This document shows positions 588 to 24,346 of a stretch of 64,000 nucleotides of DNA, piece after piece. Positions within the stretch are counted from its first letter, which is position 1. Every line of letters starts with the position of its first letter. The DNA is taken from positions 558,001-622,000 of the forward strand of contig OZ237741.1 in NCBI GenBank assembly GCA_965178125.1, in the 5' to 3' direction. The notes beneath the pieces were generated by a model that was not told the origin of the DNA, did no database searches, and saw only the letters and a program-made list of their open reading frames with translations. The translations under genes and the position numbers were made by a program. Origin of the DNA: Bilabrum cf. latius. Its lineage: Eukaryota.

Positions 588-1607
588 ATGGAATTATTAA
601 AATGGGAAAATGGAACCTTGAAAGCTACACAACCAAAAGAATATTATGAACGAAATGGATTTTAGGTTAATTTTGAAGGGAAAACCTATCATATAGCAAT
701 GGATAAAGATTATATAAGATGGTTTTTGAAGGACTATAAACCTTATGAAATAATAACAACATTCATAACAGATATGAGTGAAGTATTCAATGGATAGGAT
801 AAATTTAATGAACCTTTGAATACTTGGGATGTTTCAAATGTTAAGGATATGAGTTTAATGTTTCAAAGTTGTAGAAGCTTTAATCAACCATTGAGCAATT
901 GGGATGTTTCTAAGGTTGAAAAAATGTCGTCTATGTTCTATTTTTGTTCTAAATTCAATCAATCATTGAACGATTGGAATGTTAGTAATGTTAGGGATAT
1001 GAGTGGTATGTTTGGTTCTTGTTCAAGATTCAATCAACCATTGGATAATTGGGATGTTTCTAAGGTTGAAAATATGTCCTCTATGTTTAATGGATGTTGG
1101 AACTTCAATCAACCATTGGATAATTGGGATGTTTCTAACGTTGAAAATATGTCCTCTATGTTCCATTATTCTGAATTCAATCAATCATTGAACGATTGGA
1201 ATGTTAGTAATGTTAGGGATATGAGTGGTATGTTTGGTTCTTGTTCAAGATTCAATCAACCATTGGGTAATTGGGATGTTTCTAACGTTGAATATATATC
1301 CTCTATGTTTAATGGATGTTAGAACTTCAATCAACCATTGGATAATTGGGATGTTTCCAATGTCTAGAGTAAGTTTTAGATGTTAAAAGATTGTGAAAGT
1401 TTCAATCATTTAGAGAACGGTATTAAGGGTATAAGAATTGATTATTCTACAACATTGATACCGTTGTTAGAAAGACGAAAACATAAAACCATTAAAAAAA
1501 CAAAGAAATATAGAGAGGAATTAATTGCTAAAGCGTGGCACCCTTCAAGATTAGATTGGGTATTGGATAACGAGGAGCGAGACGAGATAGAGGATAATTT
1601 TAATTAA
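588..1607 (+). CDS. DUF285/BspA-like repeat protein, paralog 1 (339 aa, TAG=Gln)
   Basis: ~25-aa FNQPLxxWDVSxVxxMxxMF repeats; ORFs 816-1322 and 1380-1607 in one frame separated only by TAG; ends TAA; C-terminal EELIAKAWHPSR. Confidence 0.88.
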
Positions 1608-1651
1608 TAGAATTTTAATAATATTAATGATTATTTAATATTATAGTGTGA

Positions 1652-1668
1652 GTTTAAAAAGGCTTAAA
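1652..1668 (+). promoter_or_regulatory. Promoter-like motif
   Basis: GTTTAAAAAGGCTTAAA, 28 nt before ATG 1697. Confidence 0.72.
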
Positions 1669-1696
1669 TAATATATTTATTATAGGTATATACAGA

Positions 1697-2494
1697 ATGG
1701 AAGTTTTAAAATGGGAAAATGGAACCTTGAAAGCTACAAAACCAAAAGAATATTATTTTAGAAAAGATAATTATATTGTGAAATTTGAAGGTAAAACATA
1801 TTACGTAGCTAAAGATACAGATTTTCTTCTTCACGCATTGTAGTTTTTGAAACCTGAATTATTAGTAACAACATTTATTACGAATATGTTAAACCTATTT
1901 GATAATATGATAATTGAATCACCAATAAATTCATGGGATGTTTCAAATGTTAAAGATATGACCGATATGTTTTATGGGTGTCATTCGTTTAATCAACCTT
2001 TAAATAACTGGGATGTTTCAAATGTTGAAGATATGGGCGGTATGTTTAATGAGTGTCATTCGTTTAACCAACCATTGAATAATTGGAATGTTTCAAATGT
2101 TGAAGATATGAGTGAAATGTTTAATGATTGCCATTCATTTAACCAACCATTGAATAATTGGAACGTTTCAAATGTTAAAGATATGTGCGGAATGTTTTAT
2201 GATTGCCATTCACTAAATCAACCTTTAAATAACTGGGATGTTTCAAATGTTGTAGATATGGAATGTATGTTTTCTAATTGTTTTAGTTTTAATCATTTGG
2301 AGAATGGAATTAAGGATGAACGAATTGATTATTCCACGACATTAATCCCATCATTAGAAGAGCGGAAAGATGAAACAATTGAACAAACTAAAAAAATCAA
2401 AGAAGAATTAATTTCTAGAGCGTGGCACCCTTCAAGATTAGATTGGGTATTGGATAACGAGGAGCGAGACGAGATAGAGGATAATTTTAATTAA
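1697..2494 (+). CDS. DUF285/BspA-like repeat protein, paralog 2 (265 aa)
   Basis: Same repeats; leader, N-terminus and last ~70 nt nearly identical to paralog 1; one in-frame TAG. Confidence 0.88.
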
Positions 2495-2535
2495 GTTTTA
2501 TTATAATAATTATTTTATTTTTAATTATTATAGAT

Positions 2536-2883
2536 ATGGTTTATATTGTATCATTAGCGTGGGGTAGTGAATGTTATCATACACACTGGGTTAAAAAGTT
2601 TAATAATAAGGAAGAAGCACAAAAGCTTTATACTGACACTTTAAAAGACCAAGCGAAGAGAGTTGTATGGAGTGATAATTGGAAAGAAGAATATAAAAAG
2701 GAAGCAGAAGGTCAAGTTGAAAGTTTTAATGATGACAACGGAACCGATTTCAAACTATTGAAAGAAGAAGAAATTGATAACCTTACTAATAGTGAATTAG
2801 AAGAGTATATAGAATTATCGTTGATGTATGCTGAAGAATATGATGATTCAAATGAATGGTTTGATATTGAGTTTTTAGAATAA
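2536..2883 (+). CDS. Acidic hypothetical protein (115 aa)
   Basis: ATG to TAA ORF with AT-rich leader. Confidence 0.7.
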   Translation: MVYIVSLAWGSECYHTHWVKKFNNKEEAQKLYTDTLKDQAKRVVWSDNWKEEYKKEAEGQVESFNDDNGTDFKLLKEEEIDNLTNSELEEYIELSLMYAEEYDDSNEWFDIEFLE

Positions 2884-3448: not shown

Positions 3449-3820
3449 ATGGATAAATTACAAAAAGTGATTAATACCCGCTCAAAGTTAAAGAATGAAT
3501 TTCTTGATATTGTAGAAGACTTTAAGAAGACCAATCGTGAATTAGAACAAAAGTTAAAGCAACTAAAAATAAAAGAGACAGAATTAAAAAATAAAGTGAA
3601 TAGTAAATTAACCGCTCTTAATGTGGAATATAAAGAGGTGAGCAAAAAGAAAGCAGAAGCTATAGCCCCTTATATGAAAACTTTAAAAGCATTAAAAGGA
3701 AGGATGACTGGATTGACAAAGAAAGACAAGGACAAGCTGATTGACGTTCATCAAGAGATAAGGAAAATTAAAGAATAGATTAAAGTAAATGAAGCTATTA
3801 ATAGGCTTTTTAATTCGTGA
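3449..3820 (+). CDS. Basic coiled-coil hypothetical protein (123 aa)
   Basis: TATATA leader; K/E/L-rich heptads; read through TAG at 3776 to TGA. Confidence 0.7.
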
Positions 3821-3860
3821 ATAATTAATTTATAAATATTAAAATCAATTAATATATATA

Positions 3861-5018
3861 ATGAGTAAGAGAGGAAAGAAAAAAGATAATGATATTAATG
3901 AGTCAAGTTTTGGATTTAATACGAAGTCTATCACGAACGATTTAATGAAGCCGATAAAGAAACCGAAAGGATTGAATTATGTTAAATATTATAAACCTAC
4001 TAAAGAGGGGCTTATCCAATAGGCTGATTTATTGTATCTCCCTTACGCTACCAAGAACGATTCAAAATATTTATTAGTTGTGATAGATACGAGCGGGTTA
4101 GCGTTAGATTTTGAAGAGTTAAAGGATAGAGGGGCGGAGGATGTGATAAAAGCTTTTCAAAAAATCTATAAAAGAAATTATTTAATGAAACCTAAAATGA
4201 TACGAACAGATAAAGGGGGAGAATTTGATAATGAATTATTTAAAGAATATCTAAAGAAGAATAAGATAGAGCATATATTTTCAAGAGTGAAGCGTAAATC
4301 GTAGATGGCTTTAGTGGAGAGATTGAATGAGGAAATAGGGAGAGCTATATTTTATTATTTGAATTCATAGGAGATAAGAACGGGGACAACTATCACGAAC
4401 TGGAGACATTTAATACCAAAATTGAGGGAGATATTAAACGAGCGTTATAAAACAAGATAGGAAATGTTGAATAAGAAAAGGGAGAATCTACCATATATAC
4501 CGCCTAGATGTTAGGGTGAAGTATGTGATGTATTAAATGAGGGTGAAATGGTAAGAATAGGATTAGATTATCCTAGAAGTATAGAAGGGATAAAGGAAAC
4601 CGGAGCATTTAGGGCGGGAGATATTAAATATAGCGTAAAGCCTTATAAAATTGAAAGAGTAATAATAAAACCAGATAACCCCCCATTATATAAAATTGAG
4701 GGCATACCCTATACATACTTTAATAGAGATTAGTTGTTATTAGCATCTAAACCATACGAGAATAAAGCACAAGATATATTTATAATTGAAAAATTGATAA
4801 GAAAGAATAAAAATAATACATACAGGGTTAAATGGAAAGATTCATATGTTGATGAGGCTACTAAAAGAAAATATTAGAATGATATAGGTAAAATAATAAA
4901 GAGAAGAAAGAATCAAGAGGGACAAGATGAATATTTAATTCAATGGAAGATAACAACGGAGCCGGCTAAAAATATATCAAAAACTCTAAAGGATAATTTT
5001 AATAATAAGACTAAATAA
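3861..5018 (+). CDS. Retroviral-type (rve, DDE) integrase with C-terminal chromodomain-like region (385 aa)
   Basis: Q(TAG)ADL, YLLVVID, IRTDKGGEF, ALVERLN motifs; YRVKWK and EYLIQWK...TEP chromo-like strands; single frame broken only by TAG. Confidence 0.92.
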
Positions 5019-5054
5019 ATATTATTAATTTATATTTTAATAATATTCAAATAA

Positions 5055-5672
5055 TTACACTCTGTAGGTCATATTATAGACTGACATAACCATCTATGAA
5101 AGCCCTTCAAACGTATTATACACGCTATACTCATTAGGGTTAAAACTTTTCAAAAATTCAGCTCGTGAATGTCTTGCTACATCCTTATCTTCATTATCTA
5201 AATCTTTATGGATTTTGCTATACAGTTTATCGCTGGGTATAGCTACGCATATGCTGGATTTTTTGAATATTTCTTGTGCTAGTTCAAAATCACTTGTTAA
5301 AAAGACTGCTCTATGTTCTGCTTTCTATAACCAATTTTTCTTTACAGACTCAATACTTTTTTTCATAAGTTCAAATTTTAATAATTTAGCCGTTGATAAG
5401 TCCCCTCTTCGTTCTGCTTCGTTTAGGTATAAAACCTGTTTGGTGTCAGCATTAACTTTAAGGACTTCATCTAAATCAACTAATAGAATATTCGGGTCTA
5501 TAGACGTTAAACTTTTGTTAAGTGAACTTTTACCTCCTTTTCGTGGAAGGACTAAACACAATTTTTTACGATTCGCAAGTGAGGAACATAAGTTCCAAAG
5601 GAAGCATCCCGCATATCCTAGAGGAACCAACACCCCACCAACCGTGCTTGCTGTTGCTACTAACTCTGCCAT
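5055..5672 (-). CDS. P-loop-like protein with hydrophobic N-terminus (205 aa)
   Basis: LVLPRKGGKSS Walker A-like and ILLVDLD Walker B-like segments; read through TAG at 5325 to TAA. Confidence 0.6.
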
Positions 5673-5717
5673 TATATATATCTATACAAAACAAAATATT
5701 ATTATCCTATAGACTAA

Positions 5718-7796
5718 TTATTTTAATAATCTTAGTTTTTCAAAGTGTTGATATAAGATTTGTTTTACCTTGTCCTTCACATTATGATTACCTTTACCAC
5801 CGGCTATATTAAAATATTCTTGTTCAATTTGTCCTCCTTTATGCTTGCCACATCCACAACTACCGCCCCTGTTCTATGTTTTTATTTTCTAATCAATAAT
5901 TAAATTAATAGCTTTCATTAACATATTATAAGGGTCTTTATTTCCGAAACCTTGAGCTGGTGGTGAATATGTCCATTGAGGCTTCCCGCTTAATTCATAT
6001 CCCGTATCGTTTAGTCTTGATTTTGCTAATGTTCTATCACTTCTGGTTGCTCTTCCTTCTGTATTTGCTCTAGCTACTAAAGACCTAACAGCATCAGTTG
6101 ATAAATTAGGTTGTAAGACTCCGGCTTTAAGCCTTCGTATAATATATTTTAAAGTGTTAATTGTTGGGCTGGCGTCTGTTGGATTTATTCCTCTTGCTTT
6201 TAACTATGATAATATTTCATTTTTATTGCCTTTAGCATTTATTGATTGTCCTATTGATTTGGCTATTTCATCATCTGTTTTCTGTGGTTCTTGTGGTTCT
6301 GCTGGTTCTTGTGCTGGTTCTGCTGGTTGTGCTTGTTGTGCTGGTTCTACGGCTTCTCCATCTCTTGGTTCTTCATCTGGGGCTCCCCTCCGTTCTCTAG
6401 CTTGTCTTTCTTTTTCTTCTTGTTGTCTTTGTGCTTCATCTCGTTCTGCCTGTGCTTGTCTTTGTCTGAATTGAACTTCTGTAAGTTGTCTTCCAAATTC
6501 ATCTGTAATAGGTTCTCCATCTTCATCTACTGCCATCGCTTCACCTTTTCCTCTGTCTTGACCTGCGGGGGGTGCTTGTGGTTGTGAGCCTGTTTTTCCT
6601 GTTAAATAACTGATACCATCCATAACCGATTGTCCTAAAGAACCAAATGTGCTTTGTTGTTGTTCTGGTGATTGTCCTTGTTCTTGTTCTGGTGATTGTC
6701 CTTGTGGTGCTGGTGATGCTTGTAAGAATCCACTAGGTGGAACTGGTGCGGGTGATACTTTTGAAAACTAGCCTGATAAATTTCTACTGGCGTTCTCCCC
6801 TTCTTCTTCTTGTCCTGATGATTGTGATGCCTCTTGTTCTTGTGCTTTTTGTTTAAGTTCTGATAATTTCTTCTAAGCACTTTTTATAAAATCAACTTTA
6901 GACCGTCCTTTTACACCTTTAACATTTGACTATCTAAGTATTGATGCTAGTTCGGTTTTCTTTGGTGCTTTTCTACTACTTGAAGGATTGGCGTTTGCTA
7001 CTCTTTCAAGTGCTTTAATTTGTTCTTGTAGTTCTGGGCTTAATGCTTCTTGTGGTGTTGGAGGGGGTTTTGGTCTTGGTTCTGGTGGCGGTTGCGGGTT
7101 ATCTGGTTCAGGTCTATCAGGTTGCGGGTCATCTCTTTGCTATTGTTGAACGGCTTCAGGAGGATTTAAAACATCCTATAAAGCATTAACAGCGTCATCA
7201 ACTTTTGTTAATTGTGAAACATTCTATCCTTGGGGGGTTTTCGTGATTCCAGCTTGTCGTAAAGCGTTTCGTATTTGAACTGCTTTTAATCCTCTCATAT
7301 CGCTTGGTAATTGTTCTAATACTGCGTCCCGTTGTGCTTTAGTGGTTGTAAATAATCTCATATTAATATTTTTAATTCCATCAAATACCTTTTTCTTATC
7401 GCTTGCTGGTCCTACTACCTACCTTACATTAATATTATTAATGGTATCTACAACCTATCTTTTTAATTTATCCGGTAAATCTGGATTTCTATTTATAAAT
7501 GATTGTAAATTTTCTATTTGATAAATTGGTAATTCTTTTTTAGCGTTCATAGTCTTAATATTTTTAATAATATTTTCAATTCCTTGTTGTTGTTGTTGTC
7601 TTTCAATTCTAACATCAATAGGAACATAATTAGCACGAAGAAAAGCATCATCTTTTAGGGTTTTTCTTCTGGCTTCTGCTTCATCTTCTTCTTGCTATAT
7701 CATTAATCTAACTTGTGGGTCATTTTGTATCCTAAGTTGATTAGACCGTTTCTACATAATACCCTTCAGTAAATCATTAATTGTATTGTTTGACAT
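5718..7796 (-). CDS. Large Q/P/E-rich low-complexity protein (692 aa), candidate virion core protein
   Basis: ATG 7796 after TATATA leader, open to TAA 5718 with only TAG interruptions; contains ORF 6204-6623; C-terminal NRGG, HKGG, IAGG. Confidence 0.72.
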
Positions 7797-7873
7797 TGTA
7801 TATATATATTATTAATGATATAATTAATAATTTATAAACTTAAGAGATAATATGTCAATTGGTAGGCTGTCTT

Positions 7874-8263
7874 TTAAAATGAAATATCCTTATTCATAAG
7901 GTCGTGTTTCTTTATAAAAGCATTGCTGGCTTTCATTGTCATTCCCTTTTGACGGCACCATTTCATTAATTTATCCCTCTTTAACTATTTAGCACTACGG
8001 GGCTTTTTAGCTTTAGGGGCTTTCTTTGAACCCTTCTTTTTTCCTCCAGCAAGATAATTGGGACCTCCAGCGAGAACGTTCGGCTATCCACCAAGAAGGT
8101 TCAAAGCTCCCCCTTTTGTCTTTCCTTTTGTGGTTGCGTTTAATATTTGGTTTGCTGTATCTTCAACCATTTTATCAATTTCTTTTTTATAATCATTTCT
8201 GTTTATTCCAAGATGATGAAGGCTTTTATTTGTCATATCATTTATGCTCTATTTAACGCTCAT
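7874..8263 (-). CDS. Small basic core-like protein with repeated LxGG motifs (129 aa)
   Basis: TKGGALNLLGGQPNVLAGGPNYLAGGKKKGSKKAPKAKKPR; missed by the ORF track because of TAG codons; ends TAA. Confidence 0.75.
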
Positions 8264-8320
8264 ATTATTGTATATATTGGGTATATATAATTTGTTATTT
8301 ATCCATACTTATAATATATA

Positions 8321-9136
8321 ATGAAAATTAATGAATTGACACAAGCTTATTTTAATGAATACGAGAACGATATATTTGATGAGGTGAATTTTAAGAAGGG
8401 GGCTAATTTATTTTTAAATGGTTCGTATGCTATTCCTTATTATTCCTTGTTTGCTAGTGATATAGATTTATATTAGAGGGTAGAGCCTGAATTTATAAAT
8501 AGTTTAATAAGATTTGTAAAGGTTTTTATAAGTTAGGTTAATTTTATTGAGGTTAAAGCTGGTAATAAAAAATACAAGACCATAAAAGCATTCATATCTA
8601 CACCCGTTAAAACCATTTATAAATAGATATTTAGCGGAGATAAACCATACTTAAAAATTGATTTTTGGGCTTTTGATGGAAAATTTATAGATGAAATAAG
8701 CATAATTTATCATATAAGTGATTATGAAATAGATTAGGACGAGGTAAAAGATGGATTAATAAGAGATGTAGATAAATATTTTGGTTCTAATAATTTTAAA
8801 GTATTAAAACGATTGAAGGATTTATTTAAATTAAGAGGTGAGAAGAGGAATGAAAAAAGAGTCAATGATTTAATTGATAGGGAAGCATTAGGATATTTAT
8901 ATTCCATAAGAATGCGATTAGAAAGTATGCTAAGAATAAAAGGACATCAAAGCGAGAAGTCAAAATCATTTCAAAGCCTAAAAGGACTAATGAGAAAAGC
9001 ATTAGGAAATGTGGAAATAATAAAACAATTTTCAAAGTATTCTAAAGCAAATATTAATAAGATAATATCGTGGATTGACCAATACATAAATAGGAAAACA
9101 CGGGCGGAAATTAAAAATATAATTATGTCTCTATAA
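8321..9136 (+). CDS. Putative Pol-beta superfamily nucleotidyltransferase (271 aa)
   Basis: LNGSYAIPYYSLFASDIDLY fits hG[GS]x9-13Dh[DE]h; later KIDF supplies a candidate third acidic residue; in frame with ORF 8813-9136. Confidence 0.68.
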
Positions 9137-9228
9137 CTTTTTTTGTGAGGAAGGATAGAAGAAGGAACCAACTTAATATTTTAAACCCGTGTGAATAAAT
9201 GGTTTATTTTATTTTATTATTATATATA

Positions 9229-10299
9229 ATGCTATCTTTACAATATACGGAAAATAGTCATATTGTAGCTATTCAAAAATACAAAAAAACACAATAGAAC
9301 CGGTTTATTTATTACGACCCGAACGCTAAAGATATTCAACACGTCAAAGCGGAAGAGATAACAGATGATGTTTTAAAATCTTATTACGGAGAAAGCCGAG
9401 TAAGATATAACGTTGATAAGGACAAGAAAAGGGAACAATTACATAAACTATTACAAGATGAATATATACGGTCAGTTTAGGAATTTGCGATTAAAGATAA
9501 TAGTCAATATTTACCTTTTCCTATGCTCTTTCCATAGGGGCGTGAATATGTGCGATTATTTGGTAAGAGTGGAAGCGGGAAAAGTCATTTAGCTTTACAT
9601 TATATAAGGATGTATAGAGGATTAAAATATAAAAATATGTATGTTATATCACCAATTCAAGACCCTAAATATAAAAGAGAAGGCGCGACCTTCATTGATA
9701 TAGATGATTTGGTTAAAGAGAATGAAAACACTTTATATAAGGAAAAAATGGCTTATTATAAAAAAATGAAATTAGAATTTAAATATAAAAAATCTTCTTT
9801 GATGAAATCTAAACCTTTAGATGTTGTTATTGAAGCTGAAAGAAAGATAGAGGATTTGAAACCTGAGAAAGATTTAATAGAAAAAGGTTTTAAATTAAAT
9901 GTTGAGTTTTTTAAAAAATTGACCGCTGAACCTAATTTATTTATTCTGGATGATTACGAAGGCTTTAAAAAAAGGAACCAGAAAGCAAAGGCTTATTTTT
10001 TATTGGAAATCCTAGCAACTACAGGAAGGCACACAGCAAGTAGCGTTTTAGACATCACCCACAAAATAAGCGACGGTATGAAGACACGAACCATTATGAA
10101 CGAAATTACAACCCATATCATTTATAAAACAATTACAGCTAAAAGTTTAAAATATATTTTAGAAACAGTCTTAAGTTTTGACGCTCCTACTAGAAAACGA
10201 ATTAAAAAAACCCTTCATTCTCTCCCTCTCTTTGGTTATGTTGCTATTAATGTTGATAATAATTATGTAGTTAGCACAAAAAAAATATTTCTCTATTGA
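9229..10299 (+). CDS. Genome-packaging ATPase, FtsK-HerA/A32-like (356 aa)
   Basis: Walker A GKSGSGKS, Walker B LFILDD, TTGRH arginine-finger motif; directly upstream of protease and capsid genes. Confidence 0.9.
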
Positions 10300-10307: not shown

Positions 10308-10883
10308 ATGAACATAAACGACTTAAATAGACTAGTCCAAACACCGTTATCTCCTTTAGAAATTCAAAAATTAGGTGTAGCACATTTGAATTACAAACCT
10401 AGAATAGTTATTTACGATGATATTATTAAATAGACCTCATCTATTGAACATATTTTTGATGGTTATGACGGCGTAATTATTTATTATCCTAATAAAAAGA
10501 CGGGACTAAATAGCACATACGGTCATTTCATTTCATTGACCAGAAAACCATCAAGCAAAATAATATACTTCTTTGATAGCTATGGAGAAAAACCCGACCA
10601 ATAGAAACCATTTATTAATAGAGACCAATTGTATCAAGGAGAAGGAGAAGAAAATACGCTGGTAAAGTATTTAATTGATTAGAAAATGGAAGGTTGGAAA
10701 ATTGATTATAATCATAAACCGATTTAGAGTTATGCTAACAACAGCGCTACGTGTGGAAGATGGGCTCTATTAAGAAACGCTTTTTCTTTCTTATCAAATG
10801 ATTAGTTTGTAAATGAAATGTTTAGAATATCCAAAATTATGGCTCTTAGTCCTGATTAGTTAGTGGCGTTGCTTCTACATTGA
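10308..10883 (+). CDS. Adenain/Ulp1-like cysteine maturation protease (191 aa)
   Basis: GHF, YFFDSYG, PI(TAG=Q)SYANNSATCGRW give His-Asp-Cys triad plus oxyanion Gln; six in-frame TAG; absent from the ORF track. Confidence 0.92.
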
Positions 10884-11551: not shown

Positions 11552-12505
11552 ATGAGTTATAGCGATGAATTTGTAAGATTGAATTTAGTTAGTTCATCTG
11601 TCCCCCACAATTAGACGAGATAGGCGGTAGTGAATGAAACCCGTGAAGGCTTAATATTAAAACAAAGTGAAAATTATTTAACGGCTGTTGAAGAGATGGA
11701 TTTAAATAAATTTATGCTACCGGTGTTTAAACCTGAATATTAGGATGACAGCGGTAAAACCTATTTAAAATTTACTCTTGAGAATAAAACATCAGGAGCC
11801 AGAGCAGGCGATTATATAGTTCTAGGTAAAAAAGCTAAATTTTATTATTCATATTAGGATATTGTAAATGAATTTAATGAAGAGTTAAGCCGAATTTGTG
11901 ATTTGGTAAGCCTTCCAAGTGGTGATAAACCAGTCTTTAAATTTGAAAATAATAAATGGAGTTTATCAACAACTGAAGATTTTAGAGATAATTATTATTT
12001 ATTTGTTAATTTTGAAGCTTTTGCTTTATTTGATAAATTTGAATATGAAGGAATAACAACCACACCGAGTGATTTATTTGCTAAACTTTCATATAATAAT
12101 TCCCCTGCTAGTGGTGATTATGTTTTTATGGCTAGATAGACGAATTTAAATTCTTGGTGCCCTGTTAAATCTATTATCGTAGAAAGTGATATTCCAGTGA
12201 ATAAAGAATTGGTGACCACAAAATCATCTACTGGTGGCTCTATAGCCGTCAATAAATCCCCTATATTAACCAGCTACCCGTATAATCCTAATGACAGCTC
12301 ACCAATAGAAAATATATTATATGTTTCTAATCCTTACCGCTGGTATTCAATGATGAAGGATAGAAGCTTTAAGAGCGTGTCAATGGCGTTCTACTGGGTT
12401 GATAAACAAAATGAAAAGTATCCCGTAATGAATTTTAACGGGGGTGAAGCTCACATTAAACAAGTATTTAAAAAACAAACCGATAATTTAAGTTTAGATT
12501 TTTAA
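11552..12505 (+). CDS. Virophage minor capsid protein (penton), 317 aa
   Basis: NETRxxLI...Y, LPVF, WCPVKSIIVES..PV, YWVDK..YP...IK..FKK pattern of virophage pentons; lies between protease and MCP. Confidence 0.85.
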
Positions 12506-12576: not shown

Positions 12577-14466
12577 ATGGCTCAACAAATGGTTCAGAAT
12601 TTACCAGTAAGCATTAAGGCTCCTAAAAGCCTTCAAATGATAACCCCTGAAGATGCTAGTTTAGGAACAGAACTAGGTGTTCAAAAATATACCCGCCGAG
12701 AAATTAGACCATCATCTAATCAATCTAATTCTCTTCTTCCCCTTTCTTTCCCCGTTAATCCTACTAGTAAAACCGTATCAAGGTTTATTCGTCTTCGTCA
12801 TCGTATGACAGTTAGGCTACAACTAGAGCAAGCAGTGCCAGCTCAAACTGCGGGAGGTGATGCTATTACCGCTCAATCTTATCTTAAATCTAGGTTTGGA
12901 ACTAATTCATTACCTACCTTTAAAATGCTTCAAGGTGGTGTTTTAACAATTAATGGATAGCCTTTTACAGTAAAAGTTTATGAATGGGCTGAACCTACTG
13001 AAGTTATGAACAGTGAAGAAACCTTATCCACAATCTCACCCGTTGGACGCCCTGACACTGTTGGTGATTATCGTGAAGTAAGTGATACCCTTAAAAATCC
13101 TTTAGCTTGGGGTTAGGATGTTGGATATAGTGCCGGTGATAGCTTTAGTTATCGTGGAGCATATGGGAATGCTTTTACGACTGTAAGTGCTGATTTCGTT
13201 GCGGGTAATAGAGACCAAATTGATTGGACTATTGATTTTCAAGAAGCTATACCACTAAAAGGAGCAGATGTTGATGTGAATGCTAAATATTTCACCGGTG
13301 TGAGAAGCCTTCAGGTTGATTTAGATTATCACGTAAATGCCATTCAAAGACTGTGTAAGGCTAGTTTTACAAAAGATAACGGAGATATTAACAAAATAAC
13401 GGGTTAGTCAATTATAGGAGAAACAAATACGACCCTTCTTGTTGATGAAGTTGAATTTTAGAGTGGATACGCCCCCCCGACTCGTTGTATGTATAATATG
13501 CCTACAATTAAATTTTAGTCTTAGGCGCCTGTCCCTGTACCTAAATCCGCAACTGAAAATTCTTTAACTTCTTTTGATTATCAATTATCCCGTGAGAATG
13601 GTATCCCTAGTGCTATTATGGTATGTGCCCGCCTTGTTGGTTGTGATGATAACCCTAACTGGGCTAATAGAACTTTACCAATTAGAAGAATAGGTTTCTC
13701 ACTCAATGGAAGCGCTGAGGAATTAGGGGCTGTAGATAATCCACACGAATTATATAGAATTAGTAGAAAGAACGGATATGCTCTTCCTCCTTCATCCTTT
13801 TATGGTTCATCAATTGATGGAAGTGATGGAAACCGCGGTACTGGTTGCTATATGATTTTAAAACCTTCAGATGTTGCTACACTTGCTGGTGTTCAATCTA
13901 ATGTAAATACTGGATTTAATCTTAAAGTTAATCTTTAGTGCTTCAACCCTTATAATAAATATGCGGATGGTGCGTATGAGGATAAATACGAGGTAAAAGT
14001 ATGGATGTTTTATGATAATGTTCTTGTGAATGATAACGGTGTCTATACTGAGGCTGGCGCCCTTATTGAGCCTTCTAAAGTGCTTTCTGAACTTGCTAAA
14101 CGTGGTGATGCTGAAAGTGGTTCTAAAGGTTTCTAGCCTGTATTTGAGGATTTAGATAATTATGCTAATGTTATGGGTGGAAAAGGTCGTTTCTGGTCTA
14201 AGATTGGACGAGCCTTTAAACACGGATGGAACAAGGTTAAAGATTGGGCAAAAAGTGATTAGGCTAAAAACCTAGCGAAAACCATTAGGAATATAGGACC
14301 ACTCAAAAGTCTAACAGGAGACAATAGTGCTCTTGGCAAAGCGGCGGCACATTATGGATATGGAAATAGTGGAGGAGAATTGAATAAACTTGGTGGAAAA
14401 CTTACGATGCGTGGAGGTGCGGCAATGAAAACAGACGATCTTGAGGCCCTTTTAAGCACATCTTAA
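12577..14466 (+). CDS. Virophage major capsid protein (double jelly-roll), 629 aa
   Basis: Single frame broken only by TAG; NPL, RGAY, QL...IP, LPI, LYRISRKNG motifs; GG-rich C-terminal tail; size typical of virophage MCPs. Confidence 0.9.
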
Positions 14467-15091: not shown

Positions 15092-15120
15092 GATTATATT
15101 ATATAGATATTATATAGAGA

Positions 15121-15874: not shown

Positions 15875-15994
15875 GGATTTTATTATAGAGATAACCATAT
15901 ATATTTTAATATTCTAGCCTTTTTATTAGATGGTCAAGGTGTTCAATTATTAATAAAGATATCATATTTAATATTAGTATAAATATTAAATTAT

Positions 15995-16540
15995 TTAGAA
16001 ATCTTTTAATGCCTCGTTTAGTTGGTCTCTAAAGGTTTCTTCATCATCATCTTCATCATCTGGTTTATCAACATTTCTATTATTATCACGTTTTTGTTTC
16101 TTCTTATTCCTCTTCTTAGTCTTTTTCTTGGGTCTTATTGGTTCTTCTTCTTCTTCTGGTTCCTCTACTTCCTCGGGTATAAATTGACCGTATGACAAAT
16201 TAATATATTTGATGGGTTTGTCCTTCTTTTTAATTGTCATTATGGGGTCTTTACTCTCAAAATTTCCTGTATAATAAATCGGGGGCTCACTAGAAAACAT
16301 ATAAATGTATGGAACAAATGGATTTTTGGCACTGTCGGTTTTCATATCAGGGGTTAGATACAAACCATTTAATTCGTCTTCATCCACTAGTTCAAATTTA
16401 TCTTCTACGGTATTATTAAAAAATATCCCTTTAAAAGTTTTAAAGAAGAATTGATTAATATATTTCTTGGCTTTCTTTACGGCTCCCTCTTCTAAAAGTT
16501 CCATTAATTCGCTTGGTTCATAACTCTCAAATTTTGACAT
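15995..16540 (-). CDS. Hypothetical protein with acidic/basic C-terminal tail (181 aa)
   Basis: Intact ORF preceded by the promoter motif at 16569-16585. Confidence 0.75.
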   Translation of the reverse strand: MSKFESYEPSELMELLEEGAVKKAKKYINQFFFKTFKGIFFNNTVEDKFELVDEDELNGLYLTPDMKTDSAKNPFVPYIYMFSSEPPIYYTGNFESKDPIMTIKKKDKPIKYINLSYGQFIPEEVEEPEEEEEPIRPKKKTKKRNKKKQKRDNNRNVDKPDDEDDDEETFRDQLNEALKDF

Positions 16541-16568
16541 TCTATATATATTATAATAAAATAAAATC

Positions 16569-16585
16569 TTTAAGTCATTTTAAAC
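16569..16585 (-). promoter_or_regulatory. Promoter-like motif
   Basis: GTTTAAAATGACTTAAA, 28 nt before ATG 16540. Confidence 0.75.
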
Positions 16586-16632
16586 GCGTGTATTTGGCTT
16601 AAAAATAAAATATCTATAGTATATATATAAAA

Positions 16633-16977
16633 ATGGTTAAATTAAGTGATATTCAAATTGTTAGAACTCAACTTGTTAAAAACAATAAGCCCGTATATAA
16701 TTTCGTGTTCCCTCCTCGTGAAAATGATAATGGATATAATGATTTAGAAATGAAGACTTTATTAAAAAAATATATCTAGAGGTTATTAAAACAAAAGCCC
16801 CATTTAAAAAATTATGATGCGTATGTTAGTTCTCTCTACCCCATAGGCTGGCGAACTGGTTCACCATTTAAATTAAAGGATGATGTAATGTTATTCAGTC
16901 CTTCTTCTCGCTATACCTTCTTAAGTGATGAGCAAGTGAAGAGATTTATATTAATCCTCACTGCTCCGAAACAATAA
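16633..16977 (+). CDS. Hypothetical protein (114 aa)
   Basis: TATATA leader, one TAG, ends TAA; GWRTG motif; directly upstream of PolB. Confidence 0.65.
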
Positions 16978-17009
16978 TTACATTTTATAATTTAAACTTT
17001 ATAATATGT

Positions 17010-17026
17010 GTTTAAAATGGCTTAAA
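17010..17026 (+). promoter_or_regulatory. Promoter-like motif (PolB)
   Basis: GTTTAAAATGGCTTAAA, 29 nt before ATG 17056. Confidence 0.75.
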
Positions 17027-17055
17027 AATATATTAAATATAATATACTATAGGAA

Positions 17056-18555
17056 ATGATAAATTACGAAAATGTGTTAAATCAATTAAATATATGCTTT
17101 GGTAAAAAGTATGATAACCCCATTCAATCCGTAAAGTATCTAGAAAAGGTATTTAACGGTAAGCCCATAACTACAAAGAACCTTTATAAACTTGTTTCAG
17201 GTTTAAAAATGGATATAGAGATTAGAGAGAAAGACGATATAAAGGTCTATTATCTAAGTAGGAAAAAAGAGAGTTTTAAAAGGGTTTGTTTAGAATATAA
17301 AGATGGTTCATTTAAAGCCGTCTAGAGGATGAAACCTTTATTTGTGCGGTGCCATAAATCTATGGTTGTTAAATTAACCGATAAAGCCGAAATAATTGAA
17401 AAAGATAAATATAGAGTTGAGAGCCTGACCGATTATCATTCAAAGAAATATTATCTTCATTATACCATTCACGAATGCCCAGAGGATGAAGATATCAAAG
17501 AATGGAGCTTAAGGCTGAGTATAGCAAGTGATGAATTACACGACGAGAACCCATCATTAGATGTAATGAAATATGGAATCAGACAAACAGCCCTTCATTT
17601 CTTTACAATGTTTAATATGATGATAGATAGCCCACCAGATATAACCCCAGAGGAAGCGGTATTTATTGAAGGTTCAACGCGTGGCGGGATTCAATATCAC
17701 AAGAAGGGACAATATGAGGAGTTTATCACCTACGATATAAATAGTCATTACCCCGCCATTATGTCATCAAGTTCATTATTTCCATACGGAAACCCCATAT
17801 ATAAACGAGTTGAAAATAATTAGATAATTAAAAATAATGAAATAGGGATTTATAAATGTAAGGTGAGCCAAGGGAAATGCGACCCGAATATCTTTCAAAT
17901 GATGAAGGTATTTGAAAATGAATTTACTTATTATGTCTTTACTGATATTAATATGTTTGTTAAATATGGGTGTGAGATAGAGATGTCAAGCGACGAATTT
18001 AATTTTATGACCTATGATAAATATATCAAAGGTGAAACACTTTTTAAATCCTATGTCTCAATGTTCTACAAATTAAAAAGCAAATCATATCTAGCAAAAG
18101 AAATATTAAATTCATTATGGGGTAAATTATGTAGTTCCTCTAAAAAGACAATTACATCAAAAGATGATAAAAAAATAAATATAGATAAATTTGATATTGA
18201 CCGTGTAGAAATGGATAATGACGGAGAATTTATTTATCATTTGAAACATAAAGTACCCTTTAAATATAGCTGGGGAAAATTGAAACCTTTTATTCTGGCA
18301 TATGGAAGACAACGATTGATGAAGAAAGTGAATAAGAACAACGCTAAACATATTATACGAATTCACACCGACAGTATCACATTTAACAAAAGATTAAATT
18401 TTAAAGTAGGTAAAGAATTAGGTGAATATAAAGAAGAATAGATAAATGAAGAAGGATAGAAATTAATTATCCACGGATAGAATGATTTAATGGTCGTAAA
18501 TGAAAAAGAAGAAATTATATCAAGGAAAGGAAAAAAAGGCGGTTTAATGCTTTGA
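17056..18555 (+). CDS. Compact family B DNA polymerase, probably protein-primed type (499 aa)
   Basis: TRGG, YDINSHYP (motif A), KEILNSLWGKL (motif B), IHTDS (motif C); three track ORFs joined by TAG; ends TGA. Confidence 0.88.
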
Positions 18556-18582
18556 ATTAAATATTTATTAATTATATAATAT

Positions 18583-18741
18583 ATGATTAATATTATTAGT
18601 AATATCTTTGTTTAGTATGCTATTAAGAAGGCATTAAAGAAGGTAAAAAATAAATTGATGAAGAATCCAAATAATAAAAGACTCTATGAAGAATATAGAA
18701 AGAAAACGGCTCACGCTATTAAAAAATTATCATTTTATTAA
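18583..18741 (+). CDS. Small basic hypothetical protein (52 aa)
   Basis: ATG after AT-rich leader, one TAG, ends TAA; fills the gap between two genes. Confidence 0.45.
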
Positions 18742-18749
18742 TTATATAG

Positions 18750-19457
18750 ATGAATGATAATATACCTAGTTATATTAATAGTCCTAAATTATGGCGTCAG
18801 GCAGTTGAGAAAGTAAATAGAACGTATAAAAAGCCTTCAGCTTATCGTTCATTAGCATACTTTAAATCATATAAAAAACTAGGGGGGACATATGATAAAA
18901 TTAAATTAAATGAAGCATAGAAAAATTTAAGAAGGTGGAAATTAGAGGATTGGAAGAATTAGAAGGGAGAAAAGGGATATTAGGAAAAAGGAGATATATA
19001 TAGACCCACTAAAAGAATAAATAAAGAGACCCCTTTAACCTTTGGAGAATTAGACACGGAAGAAATAGAGGAAGCAATGAAGGAAAAATTTAATAACGGA
19101 CACGTGAAATCATTTAGACCTAAACCAGTTTTTAATTTATATAAATCAACTAAATCAAATAAAAAATATATGATTAAAGTAGTTCAAGGTAATAATATTC
19201 TGTTTACTGTTCATTTTGGTGGAATTAAGAATGATGGTACCCCTTATATGGACTTTATACAATATTATAATAAAGATGGAGAGAAGGAAGCAAACCGTAA
19301 AAAGAAAAATTATATTAAAAGACATTCAATAAATGAAGACTTTAAAGACTATAAATCCCCCGCTTTTTGGTCTAGGTTTGTATTATGGAATGAACCAACA
19401 TTAAAAGATAGCTTTATGGACGCCGTAGATAGAGCTAAAAAATTAATGAAAGTTTAA
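18750..19457 (+). CDS. Two-domain protein with C-terminal Tlr 6F-like domain (235 aa)
   Basis: N-terminal PSAYRS..YKKLGGTY, WKLEDW, YRPTKRI..TPLT; C-terminal KKYM..VHFG..YMDF..YIKRH..FWSRFVLW, as seen in virophages, PLVs and NCLDVs. Confidence 0.72.
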
Positions 19458-19510
19458 TATTATAGGTTTGATATAAGTTTTAGTTTTTCTCTTATTTATA
19501 TATACAAAAA

Positions 19511-20032
19511 ATGAGCTTAGCAAGATTATCGCAACCTAATGATATATCTATTCAATGTAAGAATGTCGCAACTGGTAGATTAGATAGTAGTGGTCTATAT
19601 GTAAATGCTGTTGTGAATAGTAGTGATGTAGTTGTTAGCAACGCAGGATTACATCTTGACAGTAAGGGTATCTCTTACATCACTTCGGGTGAAGCTTTAC
19701 GATTCGGTGCCAATACCGCATCTGCTGGTTTAGTTATGAGTTTTGATGAAGATGGTCACGAATGTGATTTAACCGTAAAAGGTGAAGTAGTAGCAAATAA
19801 CACCGTAGCACATAAAGGAAGGGTAAATTGGAGTGGTGGAGGTGCTACTGAATTTGCTAGTGTTCCGGGTATGACTTCTAGTGATTTGGTTTTTATTACT
19901 ACAATCACCCCCGCCAGTGAGCCGGTTGAATTTTCCCACGTAGTAGCAGGAACCGATGGATTTACGATTCATTTAACGGGTGGTAATTCCTCTAATGATT
20001 GGTCCGCTAATTGGATGGTTATTAAAGGTTGA
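19511..20032 (+). CDS. G/S/V-rich beta-strand protein, possible fibre or spike (173 aa)
   Basis: Intact ORF; composition and C-terminal ANWMVIKG resemble fibre-type proteins; function is inference. Confidence 0.6.
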   Translation: MSLARLSQPNDISIQCKNVATGRLDSSGLYVNAVVNSSDVVVSNAGLHLDSKGISYITSGEALRFGANTASAGLVMSFDEDGHECDLTVKGEVVANNTVAHKGRVNWSGGGATEFASVPGMTSSDLVFITTITPASEPVEFSHVVAGTDGFTIHLTGGNSSNDWSANWMVIKG

Positions 20033-20072
20033 AAAATCTTTTTATTTATAAAAAATAAATAAATAGATAAAT

Positions 20073-20375
20073 TTAAATTGATATCTCCGGTGGTTTAATC
20101 CCGCTATTAAGCAGGGTTTGATTAAGTTTTTTGATATATTCCTCTAGTATATCCTTTTTTGGTTCTTTGAGATTTTTTTGGTGTTTCTTCGTTCGTTCGT
20201 GTCTCGTTCTGTCCTTCCTTCTATAATAACAATCACACACATCGCATTTAACTTTTTCATTTCCTCTAGCTAAATATTTTTTATTCCATTTGTCTTTGTT
20301 TGTTTTGTAATATTCCTACATATAATTAATTTTTGGTTGTTCCTCTGTATTGCTTGAACTCTAAATATCGCTCAT
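20073..20375 (-). CDS. Small C2H2-type zinc-finger protein (100 aa)
   Basis: KCDVCDCYYRRKDRTRHERTKKH; promoter motif 27 nt upstream; two TAG. Confidence 0.75.
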
Positions 20376-20402
20376 CACTATATATTATATAAATATATAA
20401 TG

Positions 20403-20419
20403 TTTAAGTTATTTTAAAC
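20403..20419 (-). promoter_or_regulatory. Promoter-like motif
   Basis: GTTTAAAATAACTTAAA, 27 nt before ATG 20375. Confidence 0.72.
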
Positions 20420-20433
20420 ACATAAAAAAGGTA

Positions 20434-23211
20434 TTAAATATTCTAATCTAATCGTTCGTTGGATTCCTTGTATACGTCCTTCATTTCGGGATACTAATAT
20501 TTATAAACTTCATCAAATAATTCTTTCTCCTTGGTGAATTTAATTCTTAATTCTCTATCCTTTTTATCCTTTTTATTTCCCATACTCCAAGAGGTTTTAA
20601 TATTTCCAAATAACTACTTATATAATTTTACTATTGCCCCGTGTAATTCACTATCGGTTTCTATTGGCTTCTATAATCTCGCCCCGCTTACTTCTACATA
20701 TCTTTTACCCATTTCTATATATTTAATGGATTTCTCATTTTTACGTGTATAACTTAAATCAAATTTATTCAATTTAAGCGTCTATAACATCTCCTACAAT
20801 ATGATTATTTTATTCTTTGTACTTTTTGCTTTCTCATCCTTAAAATCCTTTCTATCCTTTAATTCTGTCATTAGTTTATATTTATCTTTTCTCTTAAAAT
20901 TAGCATAATTAAAATAATTCATTAATTTGTAATTATCAATTAATAACATTTTAATATCCTCCGTTATGGCTGTCTCTGGTAGCCCTAAAATTTCAATTCT
21001 TCTTTTTATATGGTCGTTCTCTACATCAAATGAATCAATCTTTTCTTGTAGTATCTCCATTGTCGCCTCTTTCATCTGCTATTTATTCATTCGTTGTGGT
21101 AATTCTTTATCCACCTATACATCGGCGCCCCTGTTTTTAAGAATAAGCTATAAATGAATATATTTATTTGTTTCGTATGTATCACATTTGAAATTATATA
21201 ATTTCTTGAGTGGTAAATAAACCTTATATGATGCCTCTATCATTGCTTTATGGGCTATCTCTTCATCATCTTCTCCCTCAAAAATATCAATGTCAATATC
21301 ATTCTCCTACATTATCCTTTTTTCGTATTTTTCTAATTTAGTATATAAATCTGTCTATGCGTTAATTTCCATATTTAAGGTCGTCTATACCTCCTTTAAA
21401 TTCTCATATCTTGGATAAATGGATTTTACATCTTCAAAATATATATTCATATATTCGGGATTTCTACATCTTGCCAGTTGCTACATCATCTACGGCGGTA
21501 GAATCGTTTTTCCTTTATATAATCCATACACTGGGCGTTCCATTACACTATCTAATCCGTAAATGACTTTAGGACTAAATATAATTTTATCATATTTATC
21601 TAAGCTCACATCTTCATCAGGTAATAAATCACTAGTAATTAATTTAACGTCCTCTATACCATCTTTACATAACATTTTATAAAATGTATCTGCGTTCTTC
21701 TTGCTATCACACGCCAGTATAAATTTATCTTCACTTTTTAATTTATCGTAAAATTTCTATTGGTCTTTTTCAAAATATACTTTTACGTCCTTAAAATGCT
21801 TATATTTATTCTTAATGAAGCTAAATTCTACTCCAGCACATTTTAAAAATTTCATCGCTATCTGGGATATGTCAGCATCTACAGCAATAAACTATTTACA
21901 CGTCCTTATCATTTTTAAAATAATAAATAATACAAGAACCCTATTATTATTCATCGTGGTAGAACTTAATATATGCTCTATAATGCTATTGAATTCATCC
22001 AAGAATACGATGTATTTAGAAAAATCATAATTCACAATTTGGGGGATACTTTCCGGCGTAATGATAAGAGACTATCCAAAATCAAAATCTTTATTCTGGT
22101 AGAACTCACATTTAATATCTTCATTTAAAAAGCTCTCGTATTGCTCTGTGCCTAAACATACACGGGACACAATGGATAAGAACGGCGTTTGAACCTGTTT
22201 AATATACTTCTTAAATGCTGTTGTTTTACCTGTTCCTGTATCACTTTTTACCACATAGTTATATTCATATTTAAAAAAGCGTTCGGGCTTCTCTATATCA
22301 TCTAACTTAGGTTTATTAATTTCTGTATACCCGTTAATATTCTCGTCATAAGGACGATAATAACACTTTGAAATATACTTATCCTTCACAAATGCCTTTA
22401 AACTTTTATCATTCTAAATTATTGAATTAACTAAATTAAAGGTTTTTAACTTATCAAAATAATGGATAGAGTTCCACACCTTGTTATTTTTGTGGTAGTC
22501 ATATTTATTGCCCTTCTTGCTCCACTCCTACCATTCCTTCTTAAATCCTAAATATTTACTCGCTAGGGTTGCTTTATACCAATCACTATAATTATTTAAA
22601 TATTTCTTATCTAATCTATTTAATATAATTGACCAGTCTTTACCATTTAGAATGAATTTCATCATACAGTTATTCACATCTTGATTATCAATTTTTGATA
22701 TCCTTTTACTCGCCCCTCTCACGTTGGATTTCTTAGAGGATTTAATAATATACTTTTCATAAAATTTATAAAGCTCCTTAGGACATTTTTTTATTTCTAC
22801 ATTATTAATAACTTCGTATTTTGACCCATTTATGCCACTTGGTGGTGCCACTACATAAGCCCCATCATTCCTAATATCAACGTCAATATCTCTATTGGTG
22901 GTAGTTAATATATTCTAATCATATTTAAAATATAGATGATACCCTCCACCCGCTGTTTTAACCGTGAATGTGTTGAACCGCTTCACAAAGTCATCTGAAA
23001 ATTTCTTGATGAATAAATGCTCCTTCTCATCGCTCCATTTATATGAATCAATATCAAACACGGTTATATTATTAATTTCTCCGGTGATAATAGCCATATT
23101 CTGATTATTAAATCGTTTAGGTTCGGGTTTGGTGAGATATCGCCAACTTTTAACATCGGGTATTTTTTGATTGTGCTTGATGGGGAAACTTACAAGGTTT
23201 TTATTATTCAT
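20434..23211 (-). CDS. Prim-pol primase fused to PriCT-2-like domain and SF2 (origin-binding-protein-like) helicase (925 aa)
   Basis: ITVFDID, TAGGGYHLYF, DIRNDGAYVVAPPS; YSDW..EWSK; KSDTGTGKTT, SIVSR, FLDEFNS; five track ORFs share one frame joined by TAG. Confidence 0.88.
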
Positions 23212-23239
23212 TTTCTATATATATTATTAGAAATATATT

Positions 23240-23256
23240 TTTAAACTATTTTAAAC
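23240..23256 (-). promoter_or_regulatory. Promoter-like motif (primase-helicase)
   Basis: GTTTAAAATAGTTTAAA, 28 nt before ATG 23211. Confidence 0.7.
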
Positions 23257-23372
23257 GCCATATTTAATTATAGAGGGCTTAAAGGGGGCTATAATAATTA
23301 ATGAAGGTGAAAGGTGAAGTTTGCCATTTAGCCCTAAAAAATAGATTGTGATATGAATGGTGTATTTTAACA

Positions 23373-23504
23373 CCTTCTAAAGTGATGGAACTATTTTTTA
23401 AAATTATCTTAAGGTCCCATACCACCTTCACAAGAGGCCCTACATCCACATTTTGCTAGAAATACTATATAATTATACGCAATTTGTGGATATAGCCATC
23501 GTAT
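23373..23504 (-). repeat. Dyad module copy D
   Basis: Same arms and 3' box, reverse orientation. Confidence 0.85.
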
Positions 23505-23575
23505 AGATTTTAATATAGCGGTTATATTAAAATATTTAATTAAATTCTAGCCCGTTTATTAAGTTGTAGGGGCTT

Positions 23576-24346
23576 TTAATTATAGATATCTTGTAGTTTT
23601 TCGTGTTCGGCCTTCACATCAAGGGTCAAATATACCCGGCTATTCCAAAACTCAGGGCTGTTTATATCATCGCTATTATTAATATTAAAATTTCTTTTAA
23701 TTTTACAAATCATAATTTGTAATTTACGAGGGCTAAACTATTTCTTAAGAGCCTCTACATCGGGTAAATTAATTTCACCAAAGAATACATCATTTCCATT
23801 TACGGACACTTTATACCTATAGTCTCCGTCTTCTAGCCTTTCCAGGTCTCCAATTATTTTTTTGTCTTCCTCAGGTATCATTTCGTCATCAGTTTCTGCT
23901 TCTATCTAGTCTTGTTCGGTACTAACGCTGTTTATTTCGCTTTCACTGTCAGGCTCCATACCGGTTAATTTTTCATCTATTGCGGTCTATCTAATTAATT
24001 CTGGCGGTTGTAAATCATCTACATCATTATAAATTTTATTATTTGGTGGTTTGTAGTCATTAAATTTATCTAGAATGTATGTTTGCTTAATTTCAACTTG
24101 GTCGTTATTATCGTGTTGTATCTTCTGTTTCTCTTCTTTCTTGGGTTTTTTGACGGCTTTTTTCTCTTTAATATCACTAACTATATTTTTATTAATTAAT
24201 TTTGGTTTTGAAAACTTACCACCTAAATCTACATACGTAGTAATGGTCTCTAAAATTTTTTGCGTACTATCTGTAATATGGTCTGTAGCCTTATAAATCT
24301 GCTTCATTAGGACAGGATTTTCAATGACATAATTATTAAAGTTCAT
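23576..24346 (-). CDS. Hypothetical protein (256 aa)
   Basis: ORF 23987-24346 read through TAGs to TAA 23576; C-terminus weakly recalls Tlr 6F (VFFG...SPEFWNSR). Confidence 0.65.

Follow-up and report, generated by a model that had tools for sequence, protein, structure and literature searches.

A mavirus-like virophage integrated beside TAG-sense host genes, with TAG very probably read as glutamine

The window analysed here is a stretch of 64,000 nucleotides (nt) from Bilabrum cf. latius (contig OZ237741.1, positions 558,001 to 622,000), in which a low-GC element adjoins GC-rich host genes. GC profile, inverted repeats and junction sequences together delimit the whole element at 86-25055, about 24.97 kb of ~30% GC. 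The first 25 kb of the window have ~30% GC and the other 39 kb ~60%, the switch falling between 24.9 and 25.2 kb. Terminal inverted repeats (TIRs) of 427 nt, 96% complementary, occupy 91-517 and 24625-25051, and CTAG followed by a run of C is found at both repeat tips (86-89, and 25052-25055 on the reverse strand). DNA outside both tips (1-85 and 25056 onward) is GC-rich. The repeats, the CTAG at their tips and the outer GC-rich DNA thus place the element ends at about 86 and 25055. An earlier note on this DNA had given the span as 588-24346, which is too small since it corresponds to the open reading frames (ORFs) only. The target duplication can be read in two ways, as CTAG or as an imperfect 6-bp CTGGTC/CAGGTC. 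We regard the element as very probably a full-length endogenous mavirus-like virophage which, together with the neighbouring host genes, uses a code of the table 15 type with TAG as sense, TAG standing for Gln in the virus.

The standard code leaves only short ORFs in the region. When TAG is read as sense, 23 ORFs of at least 100 aa fill 86.5% of 588-24346. ORFs of at least 150 aa account for 17% of the element when all three triplets are stops; turning TAG into sense raises this to 74%, TAA to 34% and TGA to 18%, and a lengthening of the longest ORF from 230 to 926 codons is obtained with TAG only. The 23 ORFs contain 98 in-frame TAG in 6831 codons, spread over 20 of them, and terminate with TAA (18) or TGA (5). 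In-frame TAA and TGA are absent, but this follows from the construction of the ORFs; the other two frames of the same strands carry 797 TAA, 518 TGA and 321 TAG. The core genes are thus, as the earlier note described them, open frames broken by TAG alone and ending in TAA or TGA, and lesions by TAA, TGA or frameshift at similar rates were not seen.

The genes and other features are collected in Table 1. The virophage identity proposed earlier is borne out by matches of the penton and the major capsid protein (MCP) to their mavirus counterparts. The penton also passes the Pfam profile of Sputnik V18/19 (PF21507) with 29.2 bits for a cut-off of 27. Residues 92-615 of the MCP align to mavirus MCP 6g45 by phmmer, 54 homologues were found in a representative protein library, and the match to Pfam MCP_V20_C is weak (E 0.0037, under the family cut-off). 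The putative packaging ATPase gave weak generic P-loop matches only (E 0.014 or more); its orthologues occur in L001, an IMG/VR contig described below, and in 5 other loci, and the protease gene is their neighbour in L001 as well as in other virophage-like contigs. A Pfam scan gave no direct match for the ORF at 17056..18555, which we call PolB-like because its L001 orthologue matches PF03175 (DNA_pol_B_2) with E 1.1e-8. In mavirus the morphogenesis genes are ordered ATPase-protease-penton-MCP, and those of the element run in the same order. Judged by its genes, the element belongs with the endogenous virophages of mavirus type as Hackl et al. 2021 understand them, with putative dependence on a giant virus.

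Table 1. Features of the element and of the adjoining host DNA (positions in the window)
Feature	Position	Strand	Evidence or remark
Left terminal inverted repeat	86..517	+	CTAG at 86-89 is repeat tip or 4-bp target duplication
DUF285 repeat protein, 339 aa, 5 TAG	588..1607	+	Pfam PF03382, E 1.1e-86
DUF285 repeat protein (paralogue), 265 aa, 1 TAG	1697..2494	+	Pfam PF03382, E 8.4e-55
rve integrase, weak C-terminal chromodomain match, 385 aa, 7 TAG	3861..5018	+	Pfam rve E 5.8e-11, Chromo 1.8e-4
Conserved virophage protein, 205 aa, 2 TAG	5055..5672	-	45% identical to L001 ORF, E 1.7e-67
Q/P/E-rich protein, 692 aa, 13 TAG, 64 CAA	5718..7796	-	no Pfam match
Putative packaging ATPase, 366 aa, 3 TAG	9199..10299	+	Walker A GKSGSGKS, Walker B LFILDD
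Putative cysteine protease, 191 aa, 6 TAG	10308..10883	+	invariant H73, D90, C149-G150; TAG140 at 10725-10727
Penton (minor capsid) protein, 317 aa, 5 TAG	11552..12505	+	mavirus penton PDB 6g41, E 6.5e-24
Major capsid protein, 629 aa, 9 TAG	12577..14466	+	mavirus MCP PDB 6g45, E 3.6e-8
Protein-primed-type family B DNA polymerase-like protein, 499 aa, 5 TAG	17056..18555	+	via L001 orthologue, E 2.5e-28
DUF5872 protein, 235 aa, 3 TAG	18750..19457	+	Pfam, E 4.9e-21
Primase-polymerase + PriCT-2 + helicase, 925 aa, 20 TAG	20434..23211	-	Pfam; 120 homologues
Copies of GTTTAAAWTGRCTTAAA	543-559, 1652-1668, 14469-14485, 15075-15091, 17010-17026	+	upstream of starts, including ORF 14514
Copies of GTTTAAAWTGRCTTAAA	16569-16585, 20403-20419, 23240-23256	-	upstream of starts
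Right terminal inverted repeat	24625..25055	-	inverted-repeat and junction sequences
Host flank: intron-poor, 60% GC eukaryotic genes, frames open only with TAG as sense	25056..64000		ORF scans
PH + protein kinase, 2398 aa, 20 TAG	34232-41428	-	host ORF, open only with TAG as sense
2594-aa host protein, 19 TAG	43480-51264	+	host ORF, open only with TAG as sense
SAMHD1-like, 4 TAG	55560-57920	+	human SAMHD1 homologue, E 1e-91

The residue encoded by TAG was read from alignments of the viral proteins. For the primase-helicase, with 120 full-length homologues (29-49% identity), the TAG577 column is Gln in 120/120, a neighbouring Gln encoded by CAA being invariant as well, and the TAG440 column is Gln in 65/120. 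Integrase codons TAG54, TAG148 and TAG291 fall in columns where Gln is found in 14, 13 and 15 of 16 homologues respectively, and in 9, 9 and 8 of the 10 orthologues from IMG/VR contigs that are clearly standard-code. TAG54 is the Q of QADLLYLP, directly before the first catalytic Asp, and the QQADL motif of the earlier note is indeed spelled with TAG at this position. When the integrase was compared with PDB, TAG148 did not fall on a conserved Q. Log-odds summed over the TAG columns in the manner of Codetta were +12.5 bits for Q and -12.1 for the runner-up, K; the same procedure decodes 46/46 codons having at least 10 columns. With TAG set to X before aligning, the values were +10.9 for Q and -12.4 for K. 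Mean Gln frequency in six proteins was 0.161 over 46 TAG columns, 0.120 over 49 CAA/CAG columns and 0.030 over 2523 other columns, and in comparison with L001, Q stands opposite 5/24 TAG sites and 8/39 CAA/CAG sites. The signal is thus carried by a few conserved columns and by the likeness of TAG sites to CAA sites. By log-odds, Q is ahead by >20 bits.

The DUF285 repeats allowed no comparison of TAG with CAA, their conserved FNQ glutamines being all CAA. In the DUF285 gene at 588-1607, codons 171 and 245 of near-identical repeats are TGG (Trp) and TAG respectively, a single G/A difference.

Glutamine was also examined in the protease, in which the earlier note had singled out a TAG at 10725-10727. 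This codon is indeed Q140, and 6 of the 11 Gln codons are TAG, the other 5 being CAA. H73, D90 and C149 are invariant in 6 sequences, while column 140 contains Gln in 4/5 homologues and Glu in one, and lies 9 residues before the invariant Cys149. The distance from Gln to Cys in adenain/Ulp1 is 6 residues. A Pfam scan gave no match for the 191-aa protease, and its profile against PDB gave sub-threshold clan-CE matches only, over the His-Asp stretch (SdeA E 0.77, adenain E 1.4). A role of Q140 as the oxyanion-hole Gln, as earlier proposed, is plausible but unproven given the spacing of 9 instead of 6.

We then turned to copies of the element in public sequencing runs, leaving runs X8-X13 (small shares) out of the comparison. 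In runs under two organism labels and from two studies, 92-94% of sampled words of 9199-14466 were present. Run contigs match 3800-23300 nearly letter for letter, including one 4091-nt contig with 7 differences. Since the same TAGs occur in contigs of two studies, they are not errors of one assembly. A diverged copy (X1, X2) of the gene at 7874-8263 has CAA at codon 93 where the window has TAG, and TAG at codon 105 where the window has CAA; these two-base exchanges are synonymous only if TAG is Gln. Two other variants between copies are one TAG->GAG and one AAG->TAG. According to Hackl et al. 2021 and Bellas et al. 2023, premature stops in endogenous elements are in many cases assembly artefacts or reflect decay, and the TAGs could likewise be nonsense mutations or assembly errors in a decaying endogenous copy. 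This is scarcely credible in view of the 98 TAG without any TAA, TGA or frameshift in 6831 codons, of the identical TAGs in independent contigs of two studies, and of the invariant Gln columns and TAG/CAA exchanges between copies.

TAG could also be sense for another residue (Glu, Lys, Leu or Tyr), or be ambiguous, sense or stop according to position. Many TAG columns are indeed mostly D, E or K, helicase position 228 being D in 79/119 and position 906 R in 101/119, the TAG->GAG and AAG->TAG variants point in the same direction, and the literature, as far as its available text goes, knows ciliate reassignments of UAG to several different amino acids. However, the CAA/CAG columns are equally scattered, log-odds are negative for E, K and all other residues, and a column of invariant Q is spelled TAG. 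As for ambiguity, the 100 TAG counted in 24 ORFs (a 96-aa ORF included) are distributed over the deciles of gene length as 9, 8, 13, 9, 12, 9, 9, 12, 8 and 11, and only 1 of 100 lies within 5 codons of a stop. This even spread, with no enrichment at gene ends, indicates that TAG is not a leaky or position-dependent terminator, and no ORF needs TAG as its stop. Both variants of this explanation appear very unlikely. The invariant and near-invariant Gln columns of helicase and integrase, the likelihood score and the TAG/CAA exchanges between copies thus agree with the earlier assignment, and it is supported that TAG behaves as glutamine in the virus. Accounting for 98/289 Gln codons (34%), TAG is seven times commoner than CAG, as expected of an AT-rich genome that has long been under this code.

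The adjoining host DNA was examined for the same code. Besides the genes of Table 1, the host flank encodes RRM/WW proteins and an NYN protein. Reading TAG as sense brings the ORF cover of the flank from 59% to 88% and lengthens its longest ORF from 606 to 2546 codons. TAG is present in 8/9 long host ORFs (70 TAG vs 278 CAG and 74 CAA), and these ORFs stop at TGA (8) or TAA (1), none of the 9 examined ending in TAG. A single frame that runs through three TAG joins the PH and kinase domains, and the similarity of the SAMHD1-like protein to its human homologue extends beyond TAG486. Together with the opening of the frames, this indicates that the host reads TAG as sense. The earlier note had the code of the virus matching that of its host: TAG as sense in the neighbouring host ORFs stands, and from the virus we infer that its host meaning is Gln too.

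If recoding were restricted to the virus, the host would use the standard code and a suppressor would come from the virus or its helper, in the style of code-15 phages. Phages with TAG as Gln on standard-code hosts are known from the literature consulted, and TAG accounts for 34% of the Gln codons of the virus as against 17% of the Gln-type codons of the host flank. Yet host genes of the same window need TAG as sense and do not stop at it, and TAG is found in all classes of viral genes and not in one block. Neither ARAGORN nor Rfam found a tRNA gene or any Rfam match in the window, in agreement with the earlier note, so the element is without a tRNA gene and decoding of TAG would presumably come from the cell or a helper virus. 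Recoding of the virus only is thus highly improbable.

Integration is indicated by the Pfam rve integrase, the TIRs, the GC-rich DNA on both sides and the candidate short duplication taken together. Next to the right end, the element interrupts a host ORF (25056-25445, minus strand) that matches GH43 in part (positions 35-144 of the 288 in the profile, E 4.6e-5); the frame of this ORF continues open into the 85-nt left flank (1-85) in both empty-site models, and a host gene was possibly split by the insertion. A smaller insertion within the element, of 332 nt and 60% GC with inverted ends of ~35 nt, was observed at 11040-11371, between the genes for protease and penton. It is missing from the main copies in X1, X2 and X6, where the joint 11039->11372 is found at full depth, and its sequence is seen in other contexts in the runs, with loose ends at 11215 and 11242. 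This segment probably represents a small mobile repeat of the host, inserted in the present copy. The broken GH43-like ORF and the 332-nt insertion fit a copy that resides in a chromosome.

A 17-nt motif, GTTTAAAWTGRCTTAAA, occurs in 8 copies vs 0.04 expected, each 25-30 nt upstream of an ATG and in the orientation of the gene. By position and orientation it is probably a promoter. The genes of the capsid module are without it, which suggests two promoter classes in the element. None of the 95 loci scanned contains this motif. TCTATAG, tried as another upstream signal, was not enriched (11 vs 6.6 expected; 9/100 shuffles reach 11). A repeat of ~140-210 nt (73-84% identity) is located inside both TIRs (261-470 and 24672-24881) and at three internal intergenic sites (10944-11034, 15749-15887 and 23378-23517), and a tandem array with a 20-nt unit, listed as six overlapping 53-nt copies, lies at 14836-14988 between ORFs 14514-14804 and 15121-15672.

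The element might instead be a Polinton-like virus or transposon that borrowed capsid genes of virophage type and multiplies without a giant virus, 'virophage' then being a misnomer for its lifestyle. It has its own integrase, polymerase-like gene and primase-helicase, and is known here from genes alone. The exact early motif of mimivirids is AAAATTGA; this has 9 occurrences in the element, all within ORFs, and 0 in the 70 nt ahead of start codons, hence it is not found upstream of the element's genes. On the other hand, capsid and penton are specifically mavirus-like, the morphogenesis genes are in the mavirus order, and a common upstream motif fits virophage-style promoters, which the available text of Hackl et al. 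2021 (PMC8547959) links to giant viruses. We consider this alternative unlikely, and keep to a mavirus-like virophage.

Among metagenomic relatives, the closest by capsid in IMG/VR is L001 (identical to L014, 1-12928), with 8 genes in common with the element at 28-45% identity. L001 carries 11 in-frame TAG in 6/14 ORFs and its stops are 7 TGA, 7 TAA and 0 TAG. A contig from another metagenome (L013, 3860-6693) has near-identical capsid genes with the same capsid TAGs. TAG makes up 6% of Gln codons in L001 vs 34% in the element, and by these counts L001 looks like a second, sparsely recoded virophage lineage. The search for TAG-recoded virophages suggested by the earlier note thus gave one case, while 31 other virophage-like IMG/VR contigs (L002-L012, L016-L035) are standard-code, 26/273 of their long ORFs ending in TAG. 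No tRNA gene was present in the loci scanned of L001-L015. IMG/VR scans with a single MCP and with P0064 gave no matches, and an alignment of 16 MCP sequences had no stretch conserved enough to serve as a search query. Three unrelated IMG/VR contigs with matches to the primase domain only (L066, L074, L045) have an ORF cover higher by 10-18 points when TAG is sense, and are probably code-15 phages. A library protein, P0012, corresponds to the L001 MCP from residue 125 bar a few differences, and looks like a gene call shortened after the TAG at codon 95.

Several observations weigh against a virophage and host that share TAG as Gln. Most TAG columns are variable, with Q in the majority in 7/46 only, so the score is carried mainly by about five columns. 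Taken alone, the MCP does not favour Q (T +4.1, Q -2.4, X-masked); its alignment of 53 homologues is too divergent to read TAG, and CAA columns are equally unconserved in it. In the protein collection, integrase P0005 has its full 385 aa, the TAGs having already been read through by the gene caller of the collection, and Q residues in the closest relatives P0007 and P0186 are thus not independent evidence. For the earlier claim that standard gene calling hides such viruses, the seemingly truncated P0012 speaks in favour and the complete P0005 against. On the host side, codon 486 of SAMHD1, the sole host TAG in an aligned conserved stretch, faces E or A, and host paralogues were uninformative on the residue at host TAG. 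Dependence on a giant virus is hinted at only by the common 17-nt upstream motif. Finally, run contigs spanned only 3800-23300, short of both junctions, and the left flank within the window measures just 85 nt.

A simple model would be as follows. By means of its rve integrase, the element would have entered the nuclear DNA of an intron-poor protist of high GC, and the AT-rich virus genome would have evolved for long under a code with TAG as Gln. A tRNA-Gln(CUA) supplied by the cell (or by a helper virus) would read UAG, alongside a release factor that does not respond to this codon. The 17-nt motif, ~29 nt upstream of eight genes, would act as promoter and may be read by a helper giant virus. 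A standard-code cell would shorten 20/23 proteins, including capsid, penton, ATPase, protease, integrase and replicase, and on this ground the code would tie the virus to its host lineage. The code may thus act as a host-range barrier, and the helper virus should avoid TAG stops, both as the earlier note had suggested.

More tentatively, and with somewhat less than even confidence, we propose a three-way system in which the virophage lineage and a helper giant virus have both long evolved in protists with UAG as Gln, all under one altered code. If true, the helper would be the first giant virus with a non-standard code, or at least would have lost its TAG stops and could not carry a standard eRF1. 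Virophage and helper would then be confined to this host lineage by the code, and L001, with its 11 TAG, would represent a lineage part-way through adapting or one moving between hosts.

The element indicates that a virophage can be fully committed to a stop reassignment, with a third of Gln codons as TAG in every gene class. It raises the questions whether giant viruses of recoded protists share the code, whether a variant code restricts the host range of eukaryotic DNA viruses, and how fast a virus takes up a new codon (34% TAG here vs 6% in L001). The case also flags a GC-rich, intron-poor eukaryote reading TAG alone as sense. Since gene calling with the standard code truncates such viruses, virophage surveys may miss or misjudge them.

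Viral elements following a host code are known from Tetrahymena, where the Tlr Maverick elements use the ciliate code, and reassignment of UAG alone is rare among known nuclear codes. Cases of it in eukaryotes are described in Panek et al. 2017 (PMC5304391) and for phyllopharyngean ciliates (PMC11687900); as in the available text of these sources, UAG is here uncoupled from UAA, which is still a stop, the host in our case being intron-poor and of 60% GC. Code-15 bacteriophages (crAss-like and Lak), in which TAG is Gln, share the codon and its new meaning with our virus. They are described as recoded vs standard-code hosts and often with suppressor tRNAs, while the present virus has its code in common with the host and is without tRNA.

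Closest in organization are the EMALEs (endogenous mavirus-like elements) known from Cafeteria burkhardae (Hackl et al. 2021, PMC8547959). Like these, as far as they are described in the available text, the element is of low GC and ~20-25 kb in a high-GC, intron-poor host, with TIRs and a short target duplication. Mavirus and EMALEs also have in common with it an MCP and penton of mavirus type, an rve integrase, a common upstream motif and a host repeat within the element. It differs from them by TAG as Gln, by a replication module of primase-helicase and short PolB-like protein, and by another, TAG-sense host. A metagenomic virophage with an ochre-reading tRNA (anticodon TTA), for which host stop reassignment was suggested (Paez-Espino et al. 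2019, PMC6905037), likewise hints at virophages in stop-reassigned hosts. That case, in the text available, consists of one tRNA gene and concerns TAA, whereas the present one has no tRNA, 98 in-frame TAG and a host flank. Literature searches gave no paper on a TAG-recoded virophage; further cases may be listed in the supplements to Hackl 2021, Bellas 2023 and Paez-Espino 2019.

The nearest precedent for the code itself is Streblomastix strix, whose endogenous viral elements use the host table with TAA and TAG as Gln; Bellas et al. 2023 (PMC10120064) saw in this the mark of a long association. These Maverick/Polinton-like elements resemble ours as integrated double jelly-roll viruses following a reassigned stop of the host. 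According to the available text, both TAA and TAG are Gln in S. strix (table 6) and the MCPs belong to a 'Metamonada' group, whereas our element has a capsid of mavirus type, uses TAA as its main stop and follows a reassignment of TAG alone. Given this precedent the principle itself is not new. New here are the case of a mavirus-type virophage, the reassignment of TAG alone for 34% of Gln codons, and a second, metagenomic case.

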